Below, one piece after another: positions 5,002 to 29,003 of a DNA stretch of 32,000 nucleotides. Position numbers and translations under genes: made by a program. The notes under the pieces are model-generated. The model had not been told where the DNA came from, did not search any database, and saw only the letters and a list, made by a program, of their open reading frames with translations. Each line of letters opens with the position of its first letter. The first letter of the stretch is position 1. This DNA comes from Pyrodictium delaneyi (GTDB taxonomy: Archaea; Thermoproteota; Thermoprotei_A; Sulfolobales; Pyrodictiaceae). The stretch spans positions 1,440,001 through 1,472,000 of the forward strand of contig NZ_CP013011.1 in the NCBI RefSeq assembly GCF_001412615.1, read 5' to 3'.

Positions 5002-5757
5002 CTACTCGTGGCCCCACTTTATGGTCCTCGATGCCACTACTAGCGCCGCTATGTTCCACATTACGAGGACTAGGGCTGGTAGCTGAGGCTGATAGACAGC
5101 ATAGTAGCCCGCGAGGCTCCTCGCCAGCTCTGCTGCCGCTGCTGTGGGTACCATGAGTGCTATAGGCTGGAGCATAGCCGGCAGCGCTGCGAGGGGGTAG
5201 AATACTGGCGGCAGCATTATGAGGATCATTGCTATCGGGTTTGTTATAGCTGATATGTTGGTGTGCTTCCGTATCCTCATCGCTAGTGCTAGGCCTAGGA
5301 ACACTGAGCACGGTAGTAGCAGGAGCCCTGCAGCCACGGCAGCCGGTATGAGCCCTAGCGTGTCTAGGGCTGTTGCTATCAGCGATAGGACTGCTATGCT
5401 GAGCGGCATATGTACTGCAAAATGGCTAGCCAGGAGGCCGAGCAGGTAGCCGCGGGGCGTCACGGGCGACGCTATGTACATCTGGAGTTTGCCGTAGACA
5501 CGTGCCCAGGCTATATCCTGTCCGACAAAGTTTATGCCGGTAGACCAGGCGCCCGCGATTATCCATGCTATTATTATGCTCTTCACTGCCTCGGCGCCGC
5601 CCCACGCCCAGAGTATGAGCGCGAACGATAAAGCCATGAACGCGTCTTGTATCAGCCAGCCAGGCTGCCTGGTCACCCACCGGCTCTCCAGAACTGCTAT
5701 ACCTAGGATACTACGGAGAATGCTAGGTCTAATGTCTCGGCCACCGCTACTGCTCAT
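5002..5757 (-). CDS. ABC-2 type transporter permease
   Basis: A 251-aa polytopic hydrophobic protein (about 6 TM segments). It overlaps the upstream ATPase gene by 11 nt. Confidence 0.75.
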   Translation of the reverse strand: MSSSGGRDIRPSILRSILGIAVLESRWVTRQPGWLIQDAFMALSFALILWAWGGAEAVKSIIIAWIIAGAWSTGINFVGQDIAWARVYGKLQMYIASPVTPRGYLLGLLASHFAVHMPLSIAVLSLIATALDTLGLIPAAVAAGLLLLPCSVFLGLALAMRIRKHTNISAITNPIAMILIMLPPVFYPLAALPAMLQPIALMVPTAAAAELARSLAGYYAVYQPQLPALVLVMWNIAALVVASRTIKWGHE

Positions 5758-6670
5758 TAAGTTTCACCTCCTTACGTGCCTCATGCACGTAGTAAAGATA
5801 GACGTCTTCGAACCCCACGGGTTCTACCGTAGCAGATTCTGCCTCAGCATCTTCTGCTATTGCATGAGCCTCGCTACGGGACGAAGCATACGCTATCAAT
5901 GTGTCACCTACGCGTATAATCTTGGCCGCAAGGCCCTGGGGGTCACGGCGTGGCCGGCGGAGCACGACACGGTAGCGGTAGGGCAGCGCCCCTCGGAGCC
6001 TCCTAGGACTCCCCTCCGCCACCACCCGCCCCTTCGATATAAAGACTGCATGGTCGGCTAACATCTCCGCCTCCCTCATATCATGGGTGGTAAATACTAT
6101 GCATCGTCCCTCGGCTGCTGCGCCCCGGACAGCATCCCATACACCATACCGGCTCTCCACGTCCAGCCCCGTGGTGGGTTCGTCAAGGAACACCACCTCA
6201 GCCTCTGTCGCCAGGGCCATGGCAGTCACTGTTTTCCTCTTCTGGCCGCCGCTCAGCCCCCAGCCACTACGGTTCCGTATTTCCCAAAGCCCTAGCTGTT
6301 TGAGCACCTCGCGAGCACGTCTCTCAGCATCACGTATACTCCAGCCTCGGGCTACGAGATACCACTTCACGGCCTCTAGTGGAGTCCAGTTGAGGTCTAT
6401 ACGGGCCTCCTGTGGCACAAGCGCTATGCGGCGTCGGACCTCCCGGGCCTCCCTGACAATGTCGAAACCCGCTACGAAGCCGCGGCCACGGCTGGGCTTG
6501 AGTATGGTAGATACCATCCCTATGGTTGTGGTCTTCCCGGCCCCGTTGGGTCCGAGAAGTACTGTCACACGACCCCAGGGTGAGGAGAAGCTCACGTCGA
6601 CCGCGCCCCAGACGCCCCCTGGGTACCTCTTAGCCAGGCCCTCCGCTACCACTGCATAGCTGCTAGGCAT
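5747..6670 (-). CDS. ABC transporter ATP-binding protein (ABC-2/CcmA-like exporter)
   Basis: Walker A GPNGAGKTT, signature LSGGQKRK, Walker B VVFLDEPTTGLD and H-loop TTHDM. Confidence 0.9.
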   Translation of the reverse strand: MPSSYAVVAEGLAKRYPGGVWGAVDVSFSSPWGRVTVLLGPNGAGKTTTIGMVSTILKPSRGRGFVAGFDIVREAREVRRRIALVPQEARIDLNWTPLEAVKWYLVARGWSIRDAERRAREVLKQLGLWEIRNRSGWGLSGGQKRKTVTAMALATEAEVVFLDEPTTGLDVESRYGVWDAVRGAAAEGRCIVFTTHDMREAEMLADHAVFISKGRVVAEGSPRRLRGALPYRYRVVLRRPRRDPQGLAAKIIRVGDTLIAYASSRSEAHAIAEDAEAESATVEPVGFEDVYLYYVHEARKEVKLNEQ

Positions 6671-8636: not shown

Positions 8637-11600
8637 ATGCCGCCAGAGACTAGGCCACGTTGTGGGCCACCGCCTAGCCGTCTCCCGAGCCTGACTGGTA
8701 CTGACGCCCGGCTCCTTGACGAGTACCTGCCGCCGTTGCCTAGTAGGCAGAGGGTCTACCAGCAAGTCGCCGAAGCGCTCAACGAGATGGAGAAGAGCCA
8801 GGACCCGGTGCTAGTGCTCCTCGTGGCCGAGTGGGGCGAGGGGAAGACGAGCATCTACAATGCGCGGGTGAAGCCCTGGCTGGAGGAGAGGGGCTGGAGG
8901 AGCCTAGAAGCCCGCGCTGCCACGGTAATGGCTCATCTCGCCTCGCTGAGGAGCCGTAGCGAGCGCGACCCAGCGTACCGGCTTATGGCCGCGCTGCTCG
9001 CCGCCGGACTCGAGCAGGAGGGCATGCTGGCAGAGCACGGGGCTCCCGATGCTGCTGGGAGCCTCCGGGAATACGTGGATCGTGTCCTCCGCAGCCTCGT
9101 TCCCCGTGGTGGGAAGCTGATAGTCTTCATCGACGAGCTGGAGGACCTCGTGGCCTCGGCCCGGGAGGAGGAGCTAGCAGAGCTAGTCGCCGGGCTCGTT
9201 GGGATACTCAATGGGGACGTCGAGACCGTCTCTGCCCAGTGCCGTGGAGAGGGCTGCATGCCCGGCTCCTTCCATATAGTGGCTAGCCTCACGCCGCCGG
9301 CCTACAGCAGGCTCATGGGTCTCCGCGACTTCGCCACCGTGGCAGCGAGGCTGCGGAGGAGGATACGCAGCGTCTGGATACAGCCACTACCCCGCCGTGA
9401 GGCTTTCGCCTTCCTCGAGAGCCTCGCCCGCTACACGCTCGGCCGGGGGCTCGACGGGCTACTCGAAGACCATAGCCTCGCCCACGCCGTGGTCTCTGGC
9501 ACCCTGGGGAACATGGGGGCGCTCGTCTCGGCGTTCAGGTACCTCGTCTCCTGGGCCCGCGGCCGTGGAGGCTGCGGCGACGGCGTAGCAGTGCTCTCGA
9601 CTGGCGATCTACTCGAGGCATTGCAGGGACTCACTCTGAGCGTTGGGGGCGCCGAGCTGCCAGCCCTCAACAGCGAGGCCTACGCACGGCTAGCCGAGGG
9701 CTGGGGGGCGCGGGCCCGGCTAGCAGGCTTCGACACTGCCGCCGCCCGGAGGCTGCTAGACGAGCTAGTCGCGCGGGGCACTGTCCCTGTCGAGGAGCTG
9801 GCCGTAGCCATTGGGACCCGACTGAGCGTCGTGGCCGAGATGGTGCAAGAGCTCAACGTGTACGGTGAGCAGTCATGGCCGCGCCGGGAGCTAGGCGTAC
9901 AGAGGCTCGTCCATGAGGTCGTGGAGGCTCCAGCAGTCGAAGACGCGTTCAAGCTGCTAAGGGCCGTGGAGCCGGAGGCTGTTAAGCTCCTCCCCCAGCT
10001 GGCTGGAAGGGAGGAGCAGAAGCCGCTAGAGCAGCTACTCGACTCCCTCGTGTACCTCGACTCGGCTGGCCGGCTCGTAGTAGCGGTGCCCGCTGACGAG
10101 CGCATGGCAGCCGACCTAGTGGCGGACGCGTCGCCGCTAGAGCTGAGCCGCGCAGAGGCCGAGAGGCTCGCTGCGCTGCTGTGGGAGGGCATCTTCTCCA
10201 GGTTGCTGGGCTCCGGTGGTGCCCGGGCCTACATGCTCTCGCCGAGGCTCCAGCGTCTACTCTACGTGAGCCCCGAGCTGAGCTACCTAGACTTCATAGC
10301 TGACCGTGTCGAAAGGCTGCAAGTGATACGCCGCGTCTACACCGAGGCAGGCCGAGGCCACCTAGCAGTAGGTGTCTCAGCCCTCCTTGCTGCAGAGGGG
10401 CTGCTGGCAGAGCCGCCAGCACTGCAGGGCGAGGGCGTCGCACGCGCTGAGCTAGTCCTCCAGGGTGGTGCCCGGGCCAGAGTACTCGTCTATGCTGTGC
10501 CGGGCGAGGTAACCGCCGCGGAGGCCCGTAGACTAGAAAGCCAGGTCATGGCTGCACTCATGAGCGGGTGGCGGCCGCACGCGATACTACTAGTACACCA
10601 TGGCGGAGTGGAGCCGCAGGCAAGGCGGCTCCTAGACGCGCTGGAGGGCAAACTCTTCCTAAAGGTGGTAGAGGCCCCGATAGAGTCAATGGTGTCCCGT
10701 GCCCGGCTCCAGGCTCTGGGCGTCAAGCTCGCCGACGAGGCTGGCGGCGTAGAGGAGGCCCTCCGTGCCGCGGTCGAGGCGGCGAGGGACCCGGGGAGGG
10801 CCGAGGAGTTCGGCTTCGACCCGTTGAGGCTCCACTCGCTGCTACGGGAGCTGGCTGAGGAGATACGGCCCCGGGAGAGGCTGGAAAGAGCGCTAGAGGA
10901 GGGCATAGACGGCGCGCCACTAGTGGTGCGGGACCCCCGCCTAGGCTATGACGTGGAGAGGCCTACCGAGCTTAGCGGCGCACTCCGCTACTTCCTCGTA
11001 GTGCCTAGCACCCGTGCATCGGCTCGGGAAGCGCTCCACGCTGCCTACGAATACGTGATGCGGTATCATCTCTACCGGGGCCCCGGCGGCGAGGGCCGGG
11101 GCCTACTAAGCCCGGACATTGACCGCGGCGAGACACAGACCCTGGAGAAGTATATGCTTCTACTAGCCGCCAACGGGTTCCTCGAGAAGAGCAACGGCAC
11201 AGCGAGAATAGACACGTTGAGCCCTATGGAGCGTAGCGTGCTCCGGGCACTGGAGCAGCTCGGCGCCCGTAGCCAAGAGGTCCCCGCATCCAGGGTCTGG
11301 GAGCTGCTGGTAGTGGAAGCACGTAACCCGGGCACTCGGAGGATGCTGCTACAGGCGCTGGCCCACCGCGGCCTCGTGTCCGCTGCCGCCTCGCGGAGGA
11401 TAGACCCGGAGCGCTCCCGGCTAAGGCTACGTGACGGCGAGGAAGCCGCCTGGCAGCTAATACGCGAGGCCCGGGCCATTGTAGAGGAGATCGAGAACGA
11501 CCCCGAGGCAGCCTCCTGGGGCTATGTGGTCTCCGCTAAGGCCCGCGACTACCGCGCCGGCAGCCTAGAGGAGTTCACCCGGAAGATGTACAGCTTGCTA

Positions 11601-13067
11601 GACACAGCCGAGGAGGCCCTAAAGGCTGGCAATACACTGATGGCGCTGAGGCTTGCCCGCACAGTGCTAGACACCGCGGAGTACGTCAGGGACGAGGTCC
11701 TCCGGGGACACGTGAAGCCCGCCGCCGCCGAGGCCAGGAGGTTACGGAGCCTCCTAGAGGACTATGCGGAGAGGATAGAGGAAGCGCGCCGGGCAGCCGA
11801 AAGGATGCTCGAACAGCTGACCGGTAGCCGTGTACAGCTAGAGGTCGAGGGCTTTGAGAGGCTCCAGGAGGCCCTCCACGCGATAGAAGAGATCGAGGAG
11901 TTGCGGCTCAGCGAGAAGCAGCTAGAGGAGGAGGTGCAACAGCTCTGGGAGGAGGCCCGGCGCCGCCACCCCCGCGACCCAGGGCGCCACCTACCATTCT
12001 ACGTCGGTGGCACTGGCCCCGTGCTACACTTCAACTACAAGCTCTGGCTGCTGGCCAAGAGGCTTGAGGAGCTGGGGCTAGCACGGCTAGGCGAGTCTGG
12101 GCTCGAGGAGGGAGAGTGGCTACGCCGCACAATGCAGGCCCTGGAGACGCTGGTCAGCGAGGCCCGGAGGCTGCTAGAAGAGAGTGCTGAGCTACGCCGC
12201 CGCGCTGAGAGGCTAGCCGAGCGGCTGAGGAGGCTCGGCGTAGAGGCCCCCGCGCCGCAGAGCATCGTGCTGCAGGGGCTAAGCGCGCCCGAGAAGCTTG
12301 GCCTCGGCGAGGCCGAGCAGCTGCTCCAGGAGGCCCGGCGCCAGCTAGAGGAGGGGCGGCGCCCGCTACTGGAGCTCGAGGAGCAGGTGGACCGGCTCCT
12401 AGGCGAACTCGAGCAGCTGGAAGAGCTAGCCGCTGAGGCCGAGAGCTGGATACATGGGCTAGAAGAGGCGGCCGAGCGCGCCAGGGCAGCAGGGCTAGCT
12501 GCTAGCCAGAGGCTGCGCGAGGCCCTAGAGGACCTAGCACTGGCACTCGACCAGGCCCAGGCCATGAAGGGCAAGGCCCAGGCAGTGCTACAGCAGCCCG
12601 GCAGACTGCTAGACGCGCTCAGGGATGCCCGCAGCCTTGTCGAGAGCGCGCTCACCCTGCTACGCGACAGTCTAGAGAGGAGCAAGAGGATACACGCGGA
12701 CGCGGTAGCGGAGGCCGAGAGGCAGCGCCAGGCCCTAGAGGCCGAGGCCCAGGCGCTCCGCGAGGCGCTGGAGAGGACCGGGGCAAGGGCGCCACAGCCG
12801 CCACGCAGCAGCGACCCGTTCACCGCTATAGCTGGGCTCCACGAGTACATCGAGAAGCTGCGACGCATGGCGGCTGAGGCGGGGGTACTATCGCAGATGG
12901 AGATGGAGGCCTACCGGGTGGTGGCCCTTGAGCGTAGGAGGCGCGGCGAGCTGCTGCTACGAGAAGCAGCCGAGCTAGTAGCGGAGAGCCTCGGCATAGA
13001 CCTCGAGGAGGCTCGCCGTATACTCATAGCCCTCATCGAGAAGGAGATACTCGAGCCAAGGCTATAG
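8637..13067 (+). CDS. Very large P-loop NTPase (KAP/ORC-like AAA-type N-domain) with winged-helix-like segments and a long C-terminal coiled coil; function unknown
   Basis: Walker A VAEWGEGKTS (nt 8835-8852) and Walker B KLIVFIDELED (nt 9117-9146). An AAA-lid-like segment reads IRSVWIQPLPRREAFAFLESL. HTH-like segments include LLDELVARGTVPVEELAVAIG, SVLRALEQLGARSQEVPAS and the C-terminal LVAESLGIDLEEARRILIALIEK. Residues from about 950 to 1400 are E/R/L/A heptad-rich. Continuous codon-like coding runs over 4.4 kb. The true start could be downstream (in-frame TTG in PPLPS, or the ATG in NEMEKS). Confidence 0.8.
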   Translation: MPPETRPRCGPPPSRLPSLTGTDARLLDEYLPPLPSRQRVYQQVAEALNEMEKSQDPVLVLLVAEWGEGKTSIYNARVKPWLEERGWRSLEARAATVMAHLASLRSRSERDPAYRLMAALLAAGLEQEGMLAEHGAPDAAGSLREYVDRVLRSLVPRGGKLIVFIDELEDLVASAREEELAELVAGLVGILNGDVETVSAQCRGEGCMPGSFHIVASLTPPAYSRLMGLRDFATVAARLRRRIRSVWIQPLPRREAFAFLESLARYTLGRGLDGLLEDHSLAHAVVSGTLGNMGALVSAFRYLVSWARGRGGCGDGVAVLSTGDLLEALQGLTLSVGGAELPALNSEAYARLAEGWGARARLAGFDTAAARRLLDELVARGTVPVEELAVAIGTRLSVVAEMVQELNVYGEQSWPRRELGVQRLVHEVVEAPAVEDAFKLLRAVEPEAVKLLPQLAGREEQKPLEQLLDSLVYLDSAGRLVVAVPADERMAADLVADASPLELSRAEAERLAALLWEGIFSRLLGSGGARAYMLSPRLQRLLYVSPELSYLDFIADRVERLQVIRRVYTEAGRGHLAVGVSALLAAEGLLAEPPALQGEGVARAELVLQGGARARVLVYAVPGEVTAAEARRLESQVMAALMSGWRPHAILLVHHGGVEPQARRLLDALEGKLFLKVVEAPIESMVSRARLQALGVKLADEAGGVEEALRAAVEAARDPGRAEEFGFDPLRLHSLLRELAEEIRPRERLERALEEGIDGAPLVVRDPRLGYDVERPTELSGALRYFLVVPSTRASAREALHAAYEYVMRYHLYRGPGGEGRGLLSPDIDRGETQTLEKYMLLLAANGFLEKSNGTARIDTLSPMERSVLRALEQLGARSQEVPASRVWELLVVEARNPGTRRMLLQALAHRGLVSAAASRRIDPERSRLRLRDGEEAAWQLIREARAIVEEIENDPEAASWGYVVSAKARDYRAGSLEEFTRKMYSLLDTAEEALKAGNTLMALRLARTVLDTAEYVRDEVLRGHVKPAAAEARRLRSLLEDYAERIEEARRAAERMLEQLTGSRVQLEVEGFERLQEALHAIEEIEELRLSEKQLEEEVQQLWEEARRRHPRDPGRHLPFYVGGTGPVLHFNYKLWLLAKRLEELGLARLGESGLEEGEWLRRTMQALETLVSEARRLLEESAELRRRAERLAERLRRLGVEAPAPQSIVLQGLSAPEKLGLGEAEQLLQEARRQLEEGRRPLLELEEQVDRLLGELEQLEELAAEAESWIHGLEEAAERARAAGLAASQRLREALEDLALALDQAQAMKGKAQAVLQQPGRLLDALRDARSLVESALTLLRDSLERSKRIHADAVAEAERQRQALEAEAQALREALERTGARAPQPPRSSDPFTAIAGLHEYIEKLRRMAAEAGVLSQMEMEAYRVVALERRRRGELLLREAAELVAESLGIDLEEARRILIALIEKEILEPRL

Positions 13068-13110
13068 CCAAGCCCTAAGCCACAGCAGTCTCCCACGGTT
13101 CTTACGATCC

Positions 13111-13125
13111 CTCGGGTTTTCTCGC
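13111..13125 (+). terminator. Possible oligo-T terminator after the giant ORF
   Basis: CTCGGGTTTTCTCGC lies about 45 nt after the stop at 13067. Confidence 0.3.
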
Positions 13126-13347
13126 CCCAGCTCCGGGAGCCTAGTCTCCTGGTCTTACACTGCAGCCCCGCGTCCACTAGCCGTGCTGGCCTAGAGGCAC
13201 GGGGAGCGAGTAGATTCGGCCATGTGTAGCTAAGGCTATAGATTAGTGTCCGGGTTCCTGTGGTACCAGGGTGTGTCTCTACCCGTGTTCTCCGGCTCAG
13301 AGGCAGCCAGCAGCCAAGGAGCCTGGTAGACTGGGGCCTGGATAGTA

Positions 13348-14046
13348 TTGCGGGGTAGCCGTAGGCTTGACGAGTATCTGCGTGAGCTCGGCAGCGCTGT
13401 AAGGAACAGACAGGTGGATGTAGAGGCACTCGTGCGACGCATAGTCGAGGAGGCTGTACGGGAGGCCGGCTGCAGCACAGTCGCTTCTCCGGATCCTGGC
13501 CTCCTGGAGAGGCTAGAGCGTATCGAGCAGCGGCTAGAGAATATTGAGAAGAGGCTTGAGCGGCTAGAGCGCCAGGGCAGCGGGGGCTTCTCGAGGAGGG
13601 ATATCGAGGAGCTCGCCCGAGCTATAGCATCCGCCGTAGCTGCTGCCGTCAAGCCCCCAGGAGCCCAGCAGAGCCGGAGAGACGAGCCACGCTGGCTACG
13701 CGCCGTCGTGGAGCGGCTCCGGGGCCGTGGCTATGTTGTTCTCCGCGAGCTTCCGCCGGAGATCCGGGAGGGCTTCGACCCCGAGGATGCCCGGAGACGC
13801 GGCCTAGTAGTAGCCAGTATCGGGGGCGAGACCGTCGTATTCACCAGGCAAGGGCTCCGTGACTTCTTGGAGCGGCTCCGGGGGCTTCGTGCGAGCGACG
13901 AGTATGAGGCAGAGGCTCAGCTGGGCCGGTACAAGCTGCTATTCCGCCTCCTCCGGGAGGAGGGCCTCGTCTACTACGCTGGGCCGGGTCGCGGCTGGGT
14001 GCTCCAAGGCCAGCTAGAGAGACTAGCCCATGAGGAGCTTGTATAG
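13348..14046 (+). CDS. Hypothetical coiled-coil protein (possible partner of the giant NTPase)
   Basis: A 232-aa ORF with no internal Met codon, so it must start at TTG 13348 or GTG 13414. It carries the perfect heptad stretch LLERLERIEQRLENIEKRLERLERQ. The C-terminal half (RGYVVLRELPPEI...VVFTRQGLRDFLERL) looks globular. Confidence 0.55.
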   Translation: MRGSRRLDEYLRELGSAVRNRQVDVEALVRRIVEEAVREAGCSTVASPDPGLLERLERIEQRLENIEKRLERLERQGSGGFSRRDIEELARAIASAVAAAVKPPGAQQSRRDEPRWLRAVVERLRGRGYVVLRELPPEIREGFDPEDARRRGLVVASIGGETVVFTRQGLRDFLERLRGLRASDEYEAEAQLGRYKLLFRLLREEGLVYYAGPGRGWVLQGQLERLAHEELV

Positions 14047-14553
14047 CAGGAGGCCGGCCACCGTCTTCCCGTCCCGTATCTCGCCCCGCCTTATCATCTC
14101 CAGGGCCTCGTCCATGGAGACCCAGAGGGTCTCTATCAGCTCGTCCTCCTCGGGCCTGGCCCCGGCCTCGCGCAGGTCACCAGCCGCGTAGATGTACATC
14201 ACCTCCGTCGAGATCCCAGGGCTAGTATAGAACCTGGCCAGTAGCCGGAGCCAGCCCGGCTCGTAGCCTGTCTCCTCCACCAGCTCCCGGCGCGCTGTCT
14301 CCTCCGGCGACTCTCCCGGCTCAAGGGTGCCGGCGGGTATCTCGTAGAGCCACTCTCCCACACTAGGACGATACTGGCGCTCCAGCAGCACCCTTCCAGA
14401 ACCGTCGACAGCCACTATCGCCACTGCGCCGGGATGACGCAGCGTATCATAGACCTGCCTTCGGCCGCGTATGACCGCCTCTACTTGGCCGAATACAAAG
14501 CGCCTGCCACGGCAAAGCTCGCGAAACCCCAGGATACGCGGCTCTACCTCCAC
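14023..14553 (-). CDS. Nudix hydrolase (ADP-ribose pyrophosphatase-like)
   Basis: The Nudix box GTLEPGESPEETARRELVEETGY matches GX5EX7REUXEEXGU. It has a convergent 24-nt 3' overlap with the previous gene. Confidence 0.9.
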   Translation of the reverse strand: MEVEPRILGFRELCRGRRFVFGQVEAVIRGRRQVYDTLRHPGAVAIVAVDGSGRVLLERQYRPSVGEWLYEIPAGTLEPGESPEETARRELVEETGYEPGWLRLLARFYTSPGISTEVMYIYAAGDLREAGARPEEDELIETLWVSMDEALEMIRRGEIRDGKTVAGLLLYKLLMG

Positions 14554-15099: not shown

Positions 15100-16719
15100 G
15101 TGCTCCTACACGGCTCAAAAACTGCAGCAATGCTAACTATAGCACTGATACTAGCCGCGTCATCAACTATGCTTGTAAAGCATTACACTACAGCAACCAT
15201 CTACGAGGATAGGTCTACTATTGTTACGGCAACTCGGCCTCTGATATCGAGAGGCCCACCGGTACTAACGATAGAGGTTAGCGACCAACAAGGAAGACCA
15301 GTAGACTTCTACGCTACGATAAGCATGCCTGCTGCCAACGGCAGTCTCATACACAGTAAGCCAGTGCGCGGTCATGGTCAAGCCACGATAGAGCTAACGA
15401 AGTACGCCGAGGAGCTATCAAGGCTGTTAGACTCGATAAACGCGGCAGGCAAACGGCTCCAAAAGATAGGGATACTAGTACTCCTAACCAGTGTAGAGAT
15501 AGAGAACGGCAAACCAGTAGTAGTCACCGATGCGTTTACCGTACCCATTAGCCTAGACGTGTTGAAGCCAGGCTACCATATAAAGGCAGTACACAAGTTC
15601 ACCCCCAAGGCCAAGACTGAGGCTAAGCAGGCGAAGCCACAGATACAGCTAGCAGCACCAAAACTAGACCTAGCCACGAGCCCCGTAGAGCCCACAGTCA
15701 ACGGACCATGCGTAGACTACGGCTTTAGCGTCACATGCTACTACTGGGAGCTAGACCAGATAGTATACCCTCCAAGCGGCGTAGACAACACCGTAAACAT
15801 GCCCTTCACAATAGTTGATGTAGCCCCAAGCAACGGCATCGACTCGCCAGCACAGAAGACAGAATCTGTGATAGTAAGTAACGTTATACGACTCCAGCTA
15901 TACACTATAGAAGAAGTAGAGATAGGGCTAGTAGTGGACTTCACACTGCTAGGCGGGTCTGTCACGATACCAGGACCAGCATTCGTAGACAGTATAAGAA
16001 ACTATGATACCTCCATCAAGACACTCCTAGACGTACAGTGTACATTCCTGAATACCCTCAACAGCCTGCCTGGGTCAAAGTGCACGCTGAATGGTATCGA
16101 TGCAGCTATCCCCGACTACTATTATGCAGCATACCTGGCTACTGGTGCTGAGGGTAGGCTATGGGTAGCAAAATATAACCTTATAGCTGAGACCTGCGAC
16201 CTGGACGGCATTTGCTACACTGAGAGTATTGGTAGCAACTATGCAGCATACTTTATACCCATCTACAATATCTTCGGGTACTTCGAACCCTACGTGGAGG
16301 TACAGGACGATTACTACAACTATGGTGGCTACCTCTACCGTGTGCTCGACGACTTAAGAAGCAAAATGGAAACAGCCACTATACTGAGCGGATACTATAA
16401 CGATAGACAATTCAACTACTATAGTGTAATCGTTGACGTGAATGGAGAGACGTACATGTCGGTATCTCTCCCCGTAGGCTCCGTAGCGGCTATAGTCTCG
16501 GGACTCAACCTGCCAATGGCTGCTACAACACTCAGCTTTACAGTAACATCTAGCGTGTACTACATTACCGCGTATGAAAGCCTATCGACTGTAACTATAG
16601 ATATAGATACGTCGGTATACCCAGGTATGCAGTATAGCAGTGAAGTCCTGAAGACCGATATGATGGTTGTACCAGATAACGGCGTCTTCACAATCCCGTT
16701 GATGGCCTTAAGACCGTGA
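15100..16719 (+). CDS. Secreted or membrane-anchored hypothetical protein (orphan, Tyr/Asn/Thr-rich)
   Basis: N-terminal hydrophobic anchor AAMLTIALILAASSTMLV. Three closely spaced Cys pairs (CVDYGFSVTC, CTFLNTLNSLPGSKC, CDLDGIC) suggest extracellular disulfides. GC is lower than the flanks. I recognise no family. Confidence 0.65.
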   Translation: MLLHGSKTAAMLTIALILAASSTMLVKHYTTATIYEDRSTIVTATRPLISRGPPVLTIEVSDQQGRPVDFYATISMPAANGSLIHSKPVRGHGQATIELTKYAEELSRLLDSINAAGKRLQKIGILVLLTSVEIENGKPVVVTDAFTVPISLDVLKPGYHIKAVHKFTPKAKTEAKQAKPQIQLAAPKLDLATSPVEPTVNGPCVDYGFSVTCYYWELDQIVYPPSGVDNTVNMPFTIVDVAPSNGIDSPAQKTESVIVSNVIRLQLYTIEEVEIGLVVDFTLLGGSVTIPGPAFVDSIRNYDTSIKTLLDVQCTFLNTLNSLPGSKCTLNGIDAAIPDYYYAAYLATGAEGRLWVAKYNLIAETCDLDGICYTESIGSNYAAYFIPIYNIFGYFEPYVEVQDDYYNYGGYLYRVLDDLRSKMETATILSGYYNDRQFNYYSVIVDVNGETYMSVSLPVGSVAAIVSGLNLPMAATTLSFTVTSSVYYITAYESLSTVTIDIDTSVYPGMQYSSEVLKTDMMVVPDNGVFTIPLMALRP

Positions 16720-27991: not shown

Positions 27992-28759
27992 GTGTCTGTG
28001 TCTTCGAGCCAACGTGGCCTGGGCCTATGCGTCGAGAGGCGGGAGCGGGGCAGCCTGATGAGTAGGAGACTCGAAGTGGGTGGCCCAGAGAATGTGGCTG
28101 GCAGATGTAACGCTCGGCTGGCGTTATTAGCGGTCCTGTTCTCCGCTATATCAGCTGTCTTGACGGTACTAGAGCTCATGGGTCTCACGGATAATCTGAA
28201 CTACTTGATTTTCCACTCTATTCCTCCACAGGGATCAGTATTCGTTAGGCTATTGTCTCTAACGGCAAGCGTTGCTGCATTCATAGTTTATGCCGCTATA
28301 CTTGTAGTTTACGATATTGCTAAGTTTGGTAAATTGAGGCTACAGACAGTTGCGCTAGGCATATCTTTGGCATCCTCTATGATAGTAGTTGCGGTACTGA
28401 AAGCACTATTACAAGTACCTAGACCTGGGGAACAACCTCTACATTACCCATTTCTACAGGCACTCCTAGTCTCTGATTACTACGCATTTCCTTCAGGCCA
28501 TACTGCAAGAGCGGTAGTGGCTGCATACTATATCGGGAAGAGGCAGAAGCCATACTTTAGAGCGGCTTTATGGATCTGGGCATTCAGTGTAGCAGCAAGC
28601 CGAGTACTGCTGGGTGCGCACTGGGTGAGCGATGTCATAGCTTCAACTGCTATAGGTCTCGCCACGGCACTTATAGTAGACTGTACAGCAAGGTACTGGG
28701 TGCGGGTTTACAATAAGTTTCTGGGAAGAATTAAAGTGTTGAGACTTAGCCTAGACTAG
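27992..28759 (+). CDS. PAP2-family (type 2 phosphatidic acid / polyprenyl-diphosphate) phosphatase, membrane protein
   Basis: The three PAP2 motifs are present: KALLQVPRP, PSGH and SRVLLGAHWVSDV. There are several TM segments. The probable true start is ATG 28058 (MSRRLEV...). GC is lower than average. Confidence 0.8.
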   Translation: MSVSSSQRGLGLCVERRERGSLMSRRLEVGGPENVAGRCNARLALLAVLFSAISAVLTVLELMGLTDNLNYLIFHSIPPQGSVFVRLLSLTASVAAFIVYAAILVVYDIAKFGKLRLQTVALGISLASSMIVVAVLKALLQVPRPGEQPLHYPFLQALLVSDYYAFPSGHTARAVVAAYYIGKRQKPYFRAALWIWAFSVAASRVLLGAHWVSDVIASTAIGLATALIVDCTARYWVRVYNKFLGRIKVLRLSLD

Positions 28760-28970
28760 TTCATGCGCGGATAGTTACGGGTGTAGGCCACACCGACCTG
28801 TTTATCGTTAAAGGCTAGAAAATCGTATAGGATTCACGTTTGCTTGACAACGTAGGAGTTGATATGGTGTTTGTTGTTTGCAAACCTACCGGACTCTATG
28901 CCGGGAGGAACACTAATAATCCTCTCAGGGAAGCTATTTGGTGTAGCTGACGTCTAGAGTACACTAGGCC

Positions 28971-28978
28971 TTTAAAGT
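28971..28978 (+). promoter_or_regulatory. Candidate TATA box (TTTAAAGT) for nuoA
   Basis: It lies 26 nt upstream of ATG 29004, consistent with a leaderless or near-leaderless transcript. Confidence 0.45.
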
Positions 28979-29003
28979 ACGTTGGTAAGAGAGGGGCCAG
29001 TTC

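Follow-up and report, generated by a model that had tools for sequence, protein, structure and literature searches.

The genome of Pyrodictium delaneyi encodes a protein of 1476 amino acids that belongs to no described family, and the question raised by its locus is what such a protein does and with which partners. The DNA analysed, referred to here as the window, is a stretch of 32,000 nucleotides (contig NZ_CP013011.1, positions 1,440,001 to 1,472,000), in which two open reading frames (ORFs) are of concern, namely the giant ORF A and the small ORF B that follows it. A first-pass annotation made from the sequence had proposed that the two form a module. The best explanation for ORF A, and one that is probable overall, is that it is an active, oligomerising AAA+ subunit of the Orc1/Cdc6 clade, belonging to a rare archaeal DNA-degradation system together with the nuclease NurA and, in part of the family, the translocase HerA.

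ORF A and its family

ORF A has 22 homologues with identities of 42-92%, nearly all of them full-length, including hypothetical proteins of P. abyssi (92%) and Hyperthermus butylicus (65%). As ORF B also has homologues, both can be taken as real genes. They lie where the first-pass annotation had placed them (Table 1), ORF A with an ATG start and ORF B with a TTG start and no internal methionine. Its view that ORF A fits no described family was borne out by Pfam, NCBIfam, PADLOC, the PDB and a comparison with BrxC, none of which could place the protein. Scans of both ORFs against Pfam, NCBIfam and PADLOC gave nothing above cutoff, and a profile of the whole family retrieved only coiled-coil noise from PDB sequences. 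No credible defence model was found for ORF A in PADLOC-DB v2, the best being JetA (E = 0.015) over a helical stretch of about 57 residues (1053-1109). Nuclease, HEPN, methylase and protease domains were also absent from the Pfam, NCBIfam and PADLOC results for the two ORFs, as had been noted before.

The family is rare. Its middle part, termed module 2, was used as a profile in an exhaustive HMMER scan of 1.84 billion representative proteins, which returned 46 proteins at E <= 1e-3. These are either about 1,400-1,770 amino acids in length (or truncated fragments of such proteins), with the module 2 match starting near residue 540-750, or split C-modules of about 850-915 amino acids, and module 2 is thus confined to the ORF A-type architecture. 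A search with a profile that included divergent members gave no new distant relatives, its candidates probably being dominated by close members and coiled-coil matches. Only two Thermococcus genomes with the giant gene turned up, and it also occurs in metagenome-assembled genomes (MAGs) labelled bacterial, although two of the carriers so labelled may be mis-binned contigs. One such contig, labelled Crocinitomicaceae (locus L024; loci of relatives carry L numbers), has archaeal-type genes and may be mis-binned.

Four deep-branching loci, one of Ignisphaera (L018) and three of Desulfurococcaceae (L021-L023), carry the giant gene as two ORFs that share one split point. They encode about 600 and about 884-892 amino acids, lie 1-3 nt apart and cover profile positions 3-589 and 607-1473. 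This is a genuine fission or fusion event. The shared split point (residues ~590-608) marks a module boundary, and the two parts were therefore modelled separately with AlphaFold2 (AF2), the models spanning residues 1-600 and 601-1145. A different split, into 1003 and 493 amino acids, was seen in L012, a MAG at 1.9x coverage, and looks like a sequencing error.

An Orc1/Cdc6-type ATPase in module 1

The AF2 model of residues 1-600 (module 1) has a mean predicted local distance difference test score (pLDDT) of 86.3 and a predicted template modelling score (pTM) of 0.82. Its best Foldseek matches are archaeal Cdc6/Orc1 structures, 2qby_A (3e-8), 1w5t, 2v1u and 1fnn (TM-score 0.60), followed by PAB2304 (2qen), the Arch_ATPase of Pyrococcus; the top 14 are all ORC/Cdc6 or PAB2304, and ORC subunits (ORC4), TnsC, MuB and DnaA are also matched. 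In the model strand 2 of the AAA+ base leads into a helical insert, and the base is followed by a helical lid and a winged helix; the Walker A, Walker B and strand-5 arginine motifs are in place, any finger role of the arginines being predicted only. Module 1 is accordingly modelled as an ORC/Cdc6-clade AAA+ base and lid with winged helices behind, and the earlier suggestion of an ORC/Cdc6-STAND-type P-loop followed by winged helices agrees with both the AF2 model and the Foldseek search. By its fold and motifs the protein is placed in the ORC/Cdc6-STAND assemblage of AAA+ ATPases. The Foldseek alignments reach over the winged-helix domain of Cdc6, and in L018 and L021-L023 the gene splits right after the winged-helix-rich region.

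The Walker A (VAEWGEGKTS, with K70) and Walker B (LIVFIDELED, with D166) motifs lie about 96 residues apart, close to the spacing first read from the sequence. As both are N-terminal and the fold is AAA+, the exclusion of an SMC/Rad50-type split ATPase also stands; the only SMC profile match has 17 bits and is restricted to the tail, and ORF A is not a member of the SMC/Rad50/SbcC proteins. Almost every distant member, those of Thermococcus and Ignicoccus among them, keeps Walker A as (A/G)EWGEGKT(S/T), and Walker B is kept as hhhF(I/V/L)DE(F/L)E throughout the family. K70/T71, D166/E167, R238 and R242 are also retained in distant members, while the sensor-1 region with its TPPAY segment after strand 4 and the GN.GA motif of the lid are conserved family-wide, the split forms included. 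Because the Walker motifs, TPPAY, the arginines and GN.GA are all kept across the family, the ATPase should be active and is probably oligomeric. By analogy with the ORC/Cdc6 clade, the strand-5 arginines are a candidate arginine finger (PMC12839542).

At the level of sequence profiles the relationship is faint. The weak KAP_NTPase and Orc1/Cdc6 flavour of the N-terminus that had been noticed earlier is genuine, as it is seen with Pfam, with NCBIfam and across 20 family members, of which 8 weakly match AAA_16 in Pfam, 7 match KAP_NTPase (in part only, much as ORF A does) and 4 match nSTAND_NTPase5. The relation to ORC/Cdc6 that had been suggested stands by fold; KAP_NTPase stays below its cutoff and DUF499/BrxC gives no match. 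ORF A scores 18.1 bits with Pfam KAP_NTPase (PF07693; cutoff 20), over profile positions 2-44 of 293, and 22 bits with the NCBIfam Orc1/Cdc6 model TIGR02928 (cutoff 181.3). KAP proteins are typified by an insert inside the P-loop domain. Membership of the KAP family was rejected, there being no full-length match above the gathering score, and an Orc1/Cdc6 replication initiator was rejected on the TIGR02928 score and on length (1476 against about 400 amino acids).

These weak KAP_NTPase and nSTAND_NTPase5 matches raise the possibility of a STAND/KAP-type signalling NTPase (Avs-like), which would oligomerise on a viral protein or nucleic acid and then activate an effector. The large multi-domain C-terminal region could serve as its sensor, and the nuclease found adjacent in relatives (see below) could be its effector. 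However, the matches of the window protein are all below curated cutoffs, the top 14 Foldseek matches are not STAND proteins of the Apaf-1/NLR/MalT type, and the Pfam scan gives no repeat-type sensor domains (TPR, WD40, LRR). In addition, the Pfam KAP model shows no KAP-type transmembrane insert past its first 44 positions, and PADLOC finds neither Avs nor any other defence model. Such a signalling role is regarded as improbable.

NurA and HerA partners in relatives

The first-pass annotation had seen no nuclease, which is correct for the window, but it missed a conserved nuclease partner elsewhere. In ten distinct loci (L001, L003, L013, L014, L016, L017, L018, L021, L022 and L023) a NurA gene lies -48 to +78 nt downstream of the giant gene, and in L006 it is found one gene further downstream. 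The giant proteins encoded in these NurA-linked loci share between 50% and 26% identity with that of the window. The partner NurAs score 24-50 bits with Pfam PF09376 (gathering cutoff 21), and in an alignment all of them keep D58, E117, D133, K175 and H282. Of these, D58, E117, D133 and H282 correspond, as mapped from the literature and from spacing, to residues found experimentally to be essential in NurA of P. furiosus (Asp51/Glu105/Asp126/His411; PMC3300031) and of S. islandicus (D58/E116/D133; PMC4351679). The partner NurAs are thus predicted to be catalytically intact. Their profile matched no PDB sequence, even at E = 10.

The operon is more extensive in some of the deepest branches. In Thermococcus argininiproducens and a second Thermococcus (L034, L035) the order is HerA-giant-NurA with gaps of 0-26 nt, in the deep-branching MAG L024 it is NurA-HerA-giant, and in L029 HerA precedes the giant gene. 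The central domain of HerA (PF01935, DUF87) is above cutoff in L024 (8e-29) and L029 (3e-26), while the HerA identity in L005, L034 and L035 is taken from precomputed annotation. Among themselves the linked HerAs share 45-51% identity, even between phyla. The copy of Thermococcus L034 has only weak similarity to HerAs of solved structure, and for the Thermococcus NurA there was no match to any solved NurA. Since the linked proteins diverge from the solved ones and the HerAs resemble each other, they are read as dedicated paralogues. In L005, a relative with 54% identity, a pair from the dedicated HerA clade is situated 5 kb upstream of the giant gene. The canonical archaeal operon has the order herA-mre11-rad50-nurA (PMC4351679), so that the giant gene occupies the Mre11-Rad50 slot.

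Further genes accompany the operon. In the two Thermococcus loci it is followed by genes for DUF5591, a TGT-family transglycosylase and DUF6884 (L034 15821-18137; L035 15904-18211), and in L029 a DUF5591 gene (5489-6256) precedes HerA. We take these genes to resemble those of ArcS/DpdA-type 7-deazaguanine modification, and their position suggests, by analogy, that a modification module may be coupled to the nuclease. Downstream of the giant gene in L024 (8908-10579) lie genes for an AAA_21/AAA_15 (AbiEii/OLD-like) ATPase and for a PIN_3 protein. Both the AAA_21/PIN and the TGT/DUF5591/DUF6884 genes are typical of conflict systems and their islands.

The position between herA and nurA also gives rise to a repair reading, in which the giant protein would serve, by analogy with Rad50, as tether or sensor in a second, lineage-specific pathway of double-strand-break end resection (HerA2-X-NurA2), kept in hyperthermophiles for genome repair and not for immunity. 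The carriers that are named at genus level are presumably all hyperthermophiles. In such organisms homologous-recombination genes are essential (PMC4351679). An ATPase head with a long helical tail, as in Rad50, is consistent with this role, as are the apparently vertical inheritance, strong purifying selection and housekeeping surroundings within Desulfurococcales and the DNA ligase gene found nearby in L001 and L034. Against it stand the scarcity in Thermococcus, the variable gene content (HerA present or absent, NurA present or absent, giant gene fused or split) and the association with TGT/DUF5591/DUF6884 and AAA_21/PIN genes. Moreover, the partners include no nuclease or phosphoesterase of the Mre11 kind, and the ATPase is of the AAA+ and not the ABC class. 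This reading is possible but doubtful.

Comparison with known systems

The likeness of ORF A to Orc1/Cdc6 and PAB2304 (PF01637) extends over residues ~58-430 and includes the AAA+ base with its strand-2 insert, the lid and the winged helix, with Foldseek E-values of 3e-8 to 5e-6 and TM-scores of up to 0.60 on the target, as well as the Walker A/B motifs and the arginines at the base of strand 5. It differs from Orc1/Cdc6 in that identity is only 13-16% and the protein is four times longer, with about 1,050 extra residues. Furthermore, ORF A does not lie at an origin, and the relative L005 has a canonical Orc1/Cdc6 gene in addition.

BrxC of the BREX system consists of an ORC/Cdc6 ATPase, a winged helix-turn-helix (wHTH), an alpha+beta domain, a second wHTH and a coiled coil of 250-500 residues with a small strand-bearing subdomain (PMC12839542). 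ORF A has the same order of parts as BrxC/PglY, from the ORC/Cdc6-clade ATPase through a helical bundle and wHTH, alpha+beta and wHTH domains to a long C-terminal helical extension with a small strand-containing subdomain, and is likewise a very large single-copy protein that may be regarded as the anchor of a multi-gene DNA-targeting system. In contrast, the partner of the ORF A family is NurA with or without HerA. ORF A was rejected as a BrxC, as alignment of the family profile with E. coli HS BrxC by hhalign gave a probability of 0.1-0.2%, there was no PADLOC BrxC match at E <= 1, and neither Pfam DUF499 nor DUF6079 was matched. The BREX partners PglX/BrxX, PglZ and BrxA/BrxB/BrxL were not found in any of about 25 loci.

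A second comparison is with the predicted capture systems, in which a HerA/FtsK translocase, an ORC/Cdc6-family ATPase with a wHTH and a nuclease share one operon (PMC10853773). Loci of the ORF A family with HerA and NurA similarly bring together a translocase, an ORC/Cdc6 wHTH ATPase and an effector nuclease. In the capture systems an inactive restriction-endonuclease (REase)-like domain is tied to the ATPase, and for ORF A there is a weak structural suggestion of such a domain. They differ in that the published nucleases have the REase fold, NurA being unmentioned in PMC12839542 and PMC10853773, that the REase-like domain of ORF A comes after the winged helices and not between ATPase and wHTH, and that the 400-residue module 2 and long tail of ORF A are not described there. 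The likeness to BrxC and to the HerA/ORC-Cdc6 capture systems is one of architecture only.

With the Mre11-Rad50-HerA-NurA system the family shares the flanking HerA and NurA homologues, the conserved NurA catalytic residues and a large ATPase with a long helical tail in the Mre11-Rad50 position. However, the head of ORF A is a contiguous AAA+ domain instead of a split ABC ATPase, no zinc hook (CxxC) is seen at a helical apex, there is no Mre11 phosphoesterase, and the giant-linked HerA and NurA are divergent paralogues. On these comparisons the ORF A family is classed as a translocase-nuclease system anchored by an ORC/Cdc6 ATPase, in which the class of nuclease and the family-specific middle module are new.

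Proposed mechanism and biological role

In the proposed mechanism the giant protein would bind DNA via its winged helices and, through ATP binding and hydrolysis and with the aid of its helical tail, assemble on or bridge its DNA target. It may then position NurA, a dedicated NurA-family 5'-3' nuclease, for degradation of the DNA, this being driven by HerA where it is present; the HerA translocase would be a dedicated one found in the deepest branches. ORF A would thereby act as an anchor or sensor ATPase, comparable to BrxC of the BREX system or to Rad50 during end resection.

Destruction of invader DNA is the likeliest biological role, and about an even chance is given to it. It is suggested by the patchy distribution of the gene, which occurs sporadically in Thermococcus and in bacterially labelled MAGs, by the variable operon content, by the DUF5591-TGT-DUF6884 and AAA_21 and PIN neighbours, and by the published capture systems (PMC10853773) and the architecture of BrxC (PMC12839542). 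The main alternative, a second lineage-specific pathway of DNA-end processing or repair, has a smaller but still considerable chance.

Several observations weigh against the DNA-degradation reading as applied to Pyrodictium, or against its defensive form. The giant gene is single-copy in every Pyrodictiaceae locus seen, and the identity of its product tracks taxonomy (92, 82, 65 and 42-62%). Its flanks are housekeeping genes, the guanine-plus-cytosine (GC) content is equal to or above that of the surroundings and no mobile-element genes are nearby. Searches of plasmid, phage and IMG/VR collections did not find it. The gene thus looks vertically inherited within Pyrodictiaceae/Desulfurococcales, and this vertical, single-copy and non-mobile pattern is no less compatible with housekeeping than with defence. 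There is no NurA or HerA gene in the 32-kb window, nor in the loci of P. abyssi, P. occultum, Hyperthermus-like organisms or Ignicoccus, and the proposed machine is therefore hypothetical for this organism. Pyrodictium ORF A would either work with partners encoded elsewhere or have become a stand-alone DNA-binding ATPase. Lastly, the AF2 models rest on 17 fairly similar sequences (45-95% identity).

The DNA-degradation reading can be extended to HerA-giant-NurA as an undescribed archaeal DNA-targeting immune system, whose steps, taken jointly, are put forward only tentatively. A BrxC-like but unrelated anchor ATPase of the Orc1/Cdc6 clade would recognise foreign or unmodified DNA and hand it to the dedicated HerA-NurA translocase-nuclease for destruction. 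In Thermococcus a coupled modification module of the 7-deazaguanine type (DUF5591-TGT-DUF6884) would mark self. The Desulfurococcales would have reduced the system to the giant protein and NurA, and Pyrodictium would have kept the anchor ATPase alone, possibly re-using its essential housekeeping HerA-NurA.

Several relatives carry genes of toxin-antitoxin type (HepT/MNT, PIN, PaREP1/HEPN) upstream of the giant gene (L001 7831-8681; L004 7809-8237; L006 9311-9730 and 1450-1941), at distances of 0.3-8.5 kb, or 0.3-2.2 kb for PIN and HepT/MNT. Such genes are abundant in hyperthermophile genomes.

Module 2, helical tail and C-terminal domain

The AF2 model of residues 601-1145 has a pLDDT of 88.2 and a pTM of 0.83. 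Module 2, of about 400 residues, is specific to the family and has no Pfam match and no Foldseek match in the PDB or BFVD, the best E-values of 0.12 and 0.04 being for short local alignments. Its first alpha/beta domain gave weak local Foldseek matches to Rpb5-N, EndoMS, AF1548 and a viral Rpb5/REase, all at E >= 0.04, and the model is at most suggestive of an Rpb5-N or restriction-endonuclease-like fold. The PD-(D/E)XK catalytic motif was not found among the invariant residues of this domain. In the remainder of the module the segment with ELSGALRY, YEYVMRYH and SPDID is highly conserved, and the secondary structure of the model shows two winged-helix units at ~833-931.

The tail (~1000-1405) had been described as an uninterrupted heptad region of about 450-500 residues, a description that does not hold. 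It is broken by a Pro/Gly-rich insert, in which P1115, G1116, P1120, F1121, Y1122, G1127 and N1133 are invariant and which forms two bridge strands in the AF2 model, and further at family-conserved Pro/Gly sites at ~1147-1155, 1201-1214, 1243, 1286, 1321 and 1382-1389. The tail is thereby cut into helices of about 30-65 residues. Helical arm 2 gave only coiled-coil noise in the PDB and SMC profiles. The conserved domain that closes the protein may be helix-turn-helix (HTH)-like.

The long helical tail bears on the other suggestions of the first-pass annotation, namely a scaffold for chromatin, segregation or membrane remodelling with no link to a nuclease. Apart from the tail itself, with its weak SMC and EzrA coiled-coil matches, this can draw on the presence of cdvABC about 5 kb upstream in L003. 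The coiled-coil matches are, however, compositional noise confined to residues 1140-1470, the proximity to cdv is seen in one lineage only, it is a nuclease and a DNA translocase that recur as partners, and no membrane segments were noted in the protein. A scaffold of this kind is scarcely credible.

Table 1. Features of ORF A, ORF B and the spacer between them, with positions in the window
Feature	Position	Strand	Basis
ORF A, giant ATPase of 1476 aa, intact and full-length, from a rare family of archaea	8637..13067	+	homologue and profile searches
AAA+ alpha/beta base, ~residues 58-250, helical insert after strand 2 (predicted)	8808..9386	+	AF2, Foldseek
Walker A AEWGEGKTS, residues 64-72	8826..8852	+	invariant in alignment A1
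Walker B strand LIVFIDELED, residues 161-170	9117..9146	+	D166 and E167 invariant in A1
Conserved arginines R238, R241, R242 and R244, base of strand 5	9348..9368	+	invariant in A1
AAA+ lid helical bundle, residues 253-308, conserved GNMGAL…R301	9393..9560	+	AF2, conservation
Winged-helix-rich region, residues 320-600, end of module 1	9594..10436	+	AF2 helix-helix-helix-hairpin patterns
First alpha/beta domain of module 2, residues 601-682	10437..10682	+	AF2, pLDDT ~90
Rest of module 2, residues 683-1000, helical region with the ELSGALRY / YEYVMRYH / SPDID segment	10683..11636	+	AF2
Helical arm 1, residues 1000-1110, long helix 1000-1062 and return helices	11634..11966	+	AF2, conservation
Pro/Gly-rich insert, residues 1112-1137, PRDPGRxxPFYxxGxGPxxHFNYKLW, two short strands	11970..12047	+	conservation, AF2
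Helical arm 2, residues 1141-1400, poorly conserved, E/R/L/A-rich, segmented	12057..12836	+	sequence
Conserved C-terminal domain, residues 1406-1476, helical	12852..13064	+	conservation rises again
Conserved block in the ORF A-ORF B spacer, contains GGCTATAG	13201..13246	+	conserved in three Pyrodictium species
ORF B, 232 aa, leucine zipper and conserved C-terminal domain	13348..14046	+	homologues, synteny

ORF B and its neighbours

ORF B has 20 homologues, with 81% identity in P. abyssi and 75% in P. occultum, whose N-termini (MRGSRRLDEY...) agree with the TTG start. A longer form, as in the P. abyssi annotation (256 amino acids), was rejected for the window, where the sequence ahead of 13348 offers no start codon; the homologue N-termini also fit the TTG. 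Searches of Pfam and the PDB gave only coiled-coil noise and no recognisable family. The spacer to ORF A is 280 nt long, as first reported, while the T-run said to follow ORF A amounts to TTTT. The conserved spacer block suggests a candidate separate promoter for ORF B. An inverted repeat (CCGTGC...GCACGG, 13182-13204) is also found in the spacer, and an Rfam scan of the window was empty, giving no family for either the repeat or the block.

The two genes had been proposed as a dedicated module in which the small protein docks on the giant one by coiled-coil pairing. They are adjacent and co-directional in three Pyrodictium genomes, both proteins have heptad-like helices and both families are limited to much the same lineage. 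ORF B follows the giant gene solely in the window, in P. abyssi (L004) and in P. occultum (L033), however, and the pairing dissolves outside the genus. A homologue in a Pyrodictiaceae MAG (L031) keeps the convergent Nudix gene with no giant gene within 8 kb, and that of Pyrofollis japonicus (L032) is next to neither. In seven other Pyrodictiaceae loci a different gene follows the giant gene (a MatE transporter or other unknowns), which by hidden Markov model (HMM) searches and hhalign has no homology to ORF B; the small downstream genes of L003, L005 and L006 were rejected as remote homologues by the same means. A lack of pairing in relatives, which the first-pass annotation had itself named as counting against a module, is thus what is seen beyond one genus. 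The spacer with its block conserved in three species also speaks for separate transcription through a promoter of its own, and the association of ORF B that does persist is the overlap with Nudix. As the pairing is lost outside Pyrodictium, the two-gene module is not supported, and it is considered very unlikely. ORF B is a conserved gene and, to judge from its distribution, an unrelated neighbour of ORF A and not its conserved partner.

The Nudix ORF (14023-14553, minus strand) overlaps the 3' end of ORF B by 24 nt, as had been observed. This convergent 3' overlap recurs in P. occultum (L033 8001-9215) and in the unrelated MAG (L031 8001-9409), and Nudix is the more persistent association of ORF B.

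Other features of the window

Downstream of these genes, a 539-amino-acid ORF (15100-16719, plus strand) stands out by its low GC content (0.47-0.49, where the surroundings have about 0.62). Its product has a hydrophobic N-terminal segment and no Pfam match, and P. abyssi lacks a counterpart at the syntenic position. The ORF was probably acquired horizontally and encodes a protein that is secreted or exposed at the surface. GC content is low again (0.483) at 28001-29000, where an ORF for a PAP2-family phosphatase is found (27992-28759). A tRNA scan of the window was empty.

Significance

To our knowledge, NurA and HerA are known almost solely as an essential archaeal end-resection pair acting with Mre11-Rad50. 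HerA alone has lately emerged as a hub of bacterial anti-phage systems, and archaeal defence is far less charted than bacterial. In terms of annotation, the hypothetical protein of ORF A can be renamed a predicted Orc1/Cdc6-like AAA+ DNA-binding ATPase of a NurA-associated family, and ORF B should not carry the label of an ORF A partner. Module 2, with about 400 residues that fold confidently in the model, has no relative outside the family, either among 1.84 billion proteins or in the PDB, and thus offers structural biology a clean target for discovery. A giant AAA+ protein that replaces Mre11-Rad50 between herA and nurA paralogues would, if true, be a new archaeal immune system or a new solution to repair, and in the latter case it would represent a second, AAA+-based answer to DNA-end tethering and sensing in hyperthermophiles.

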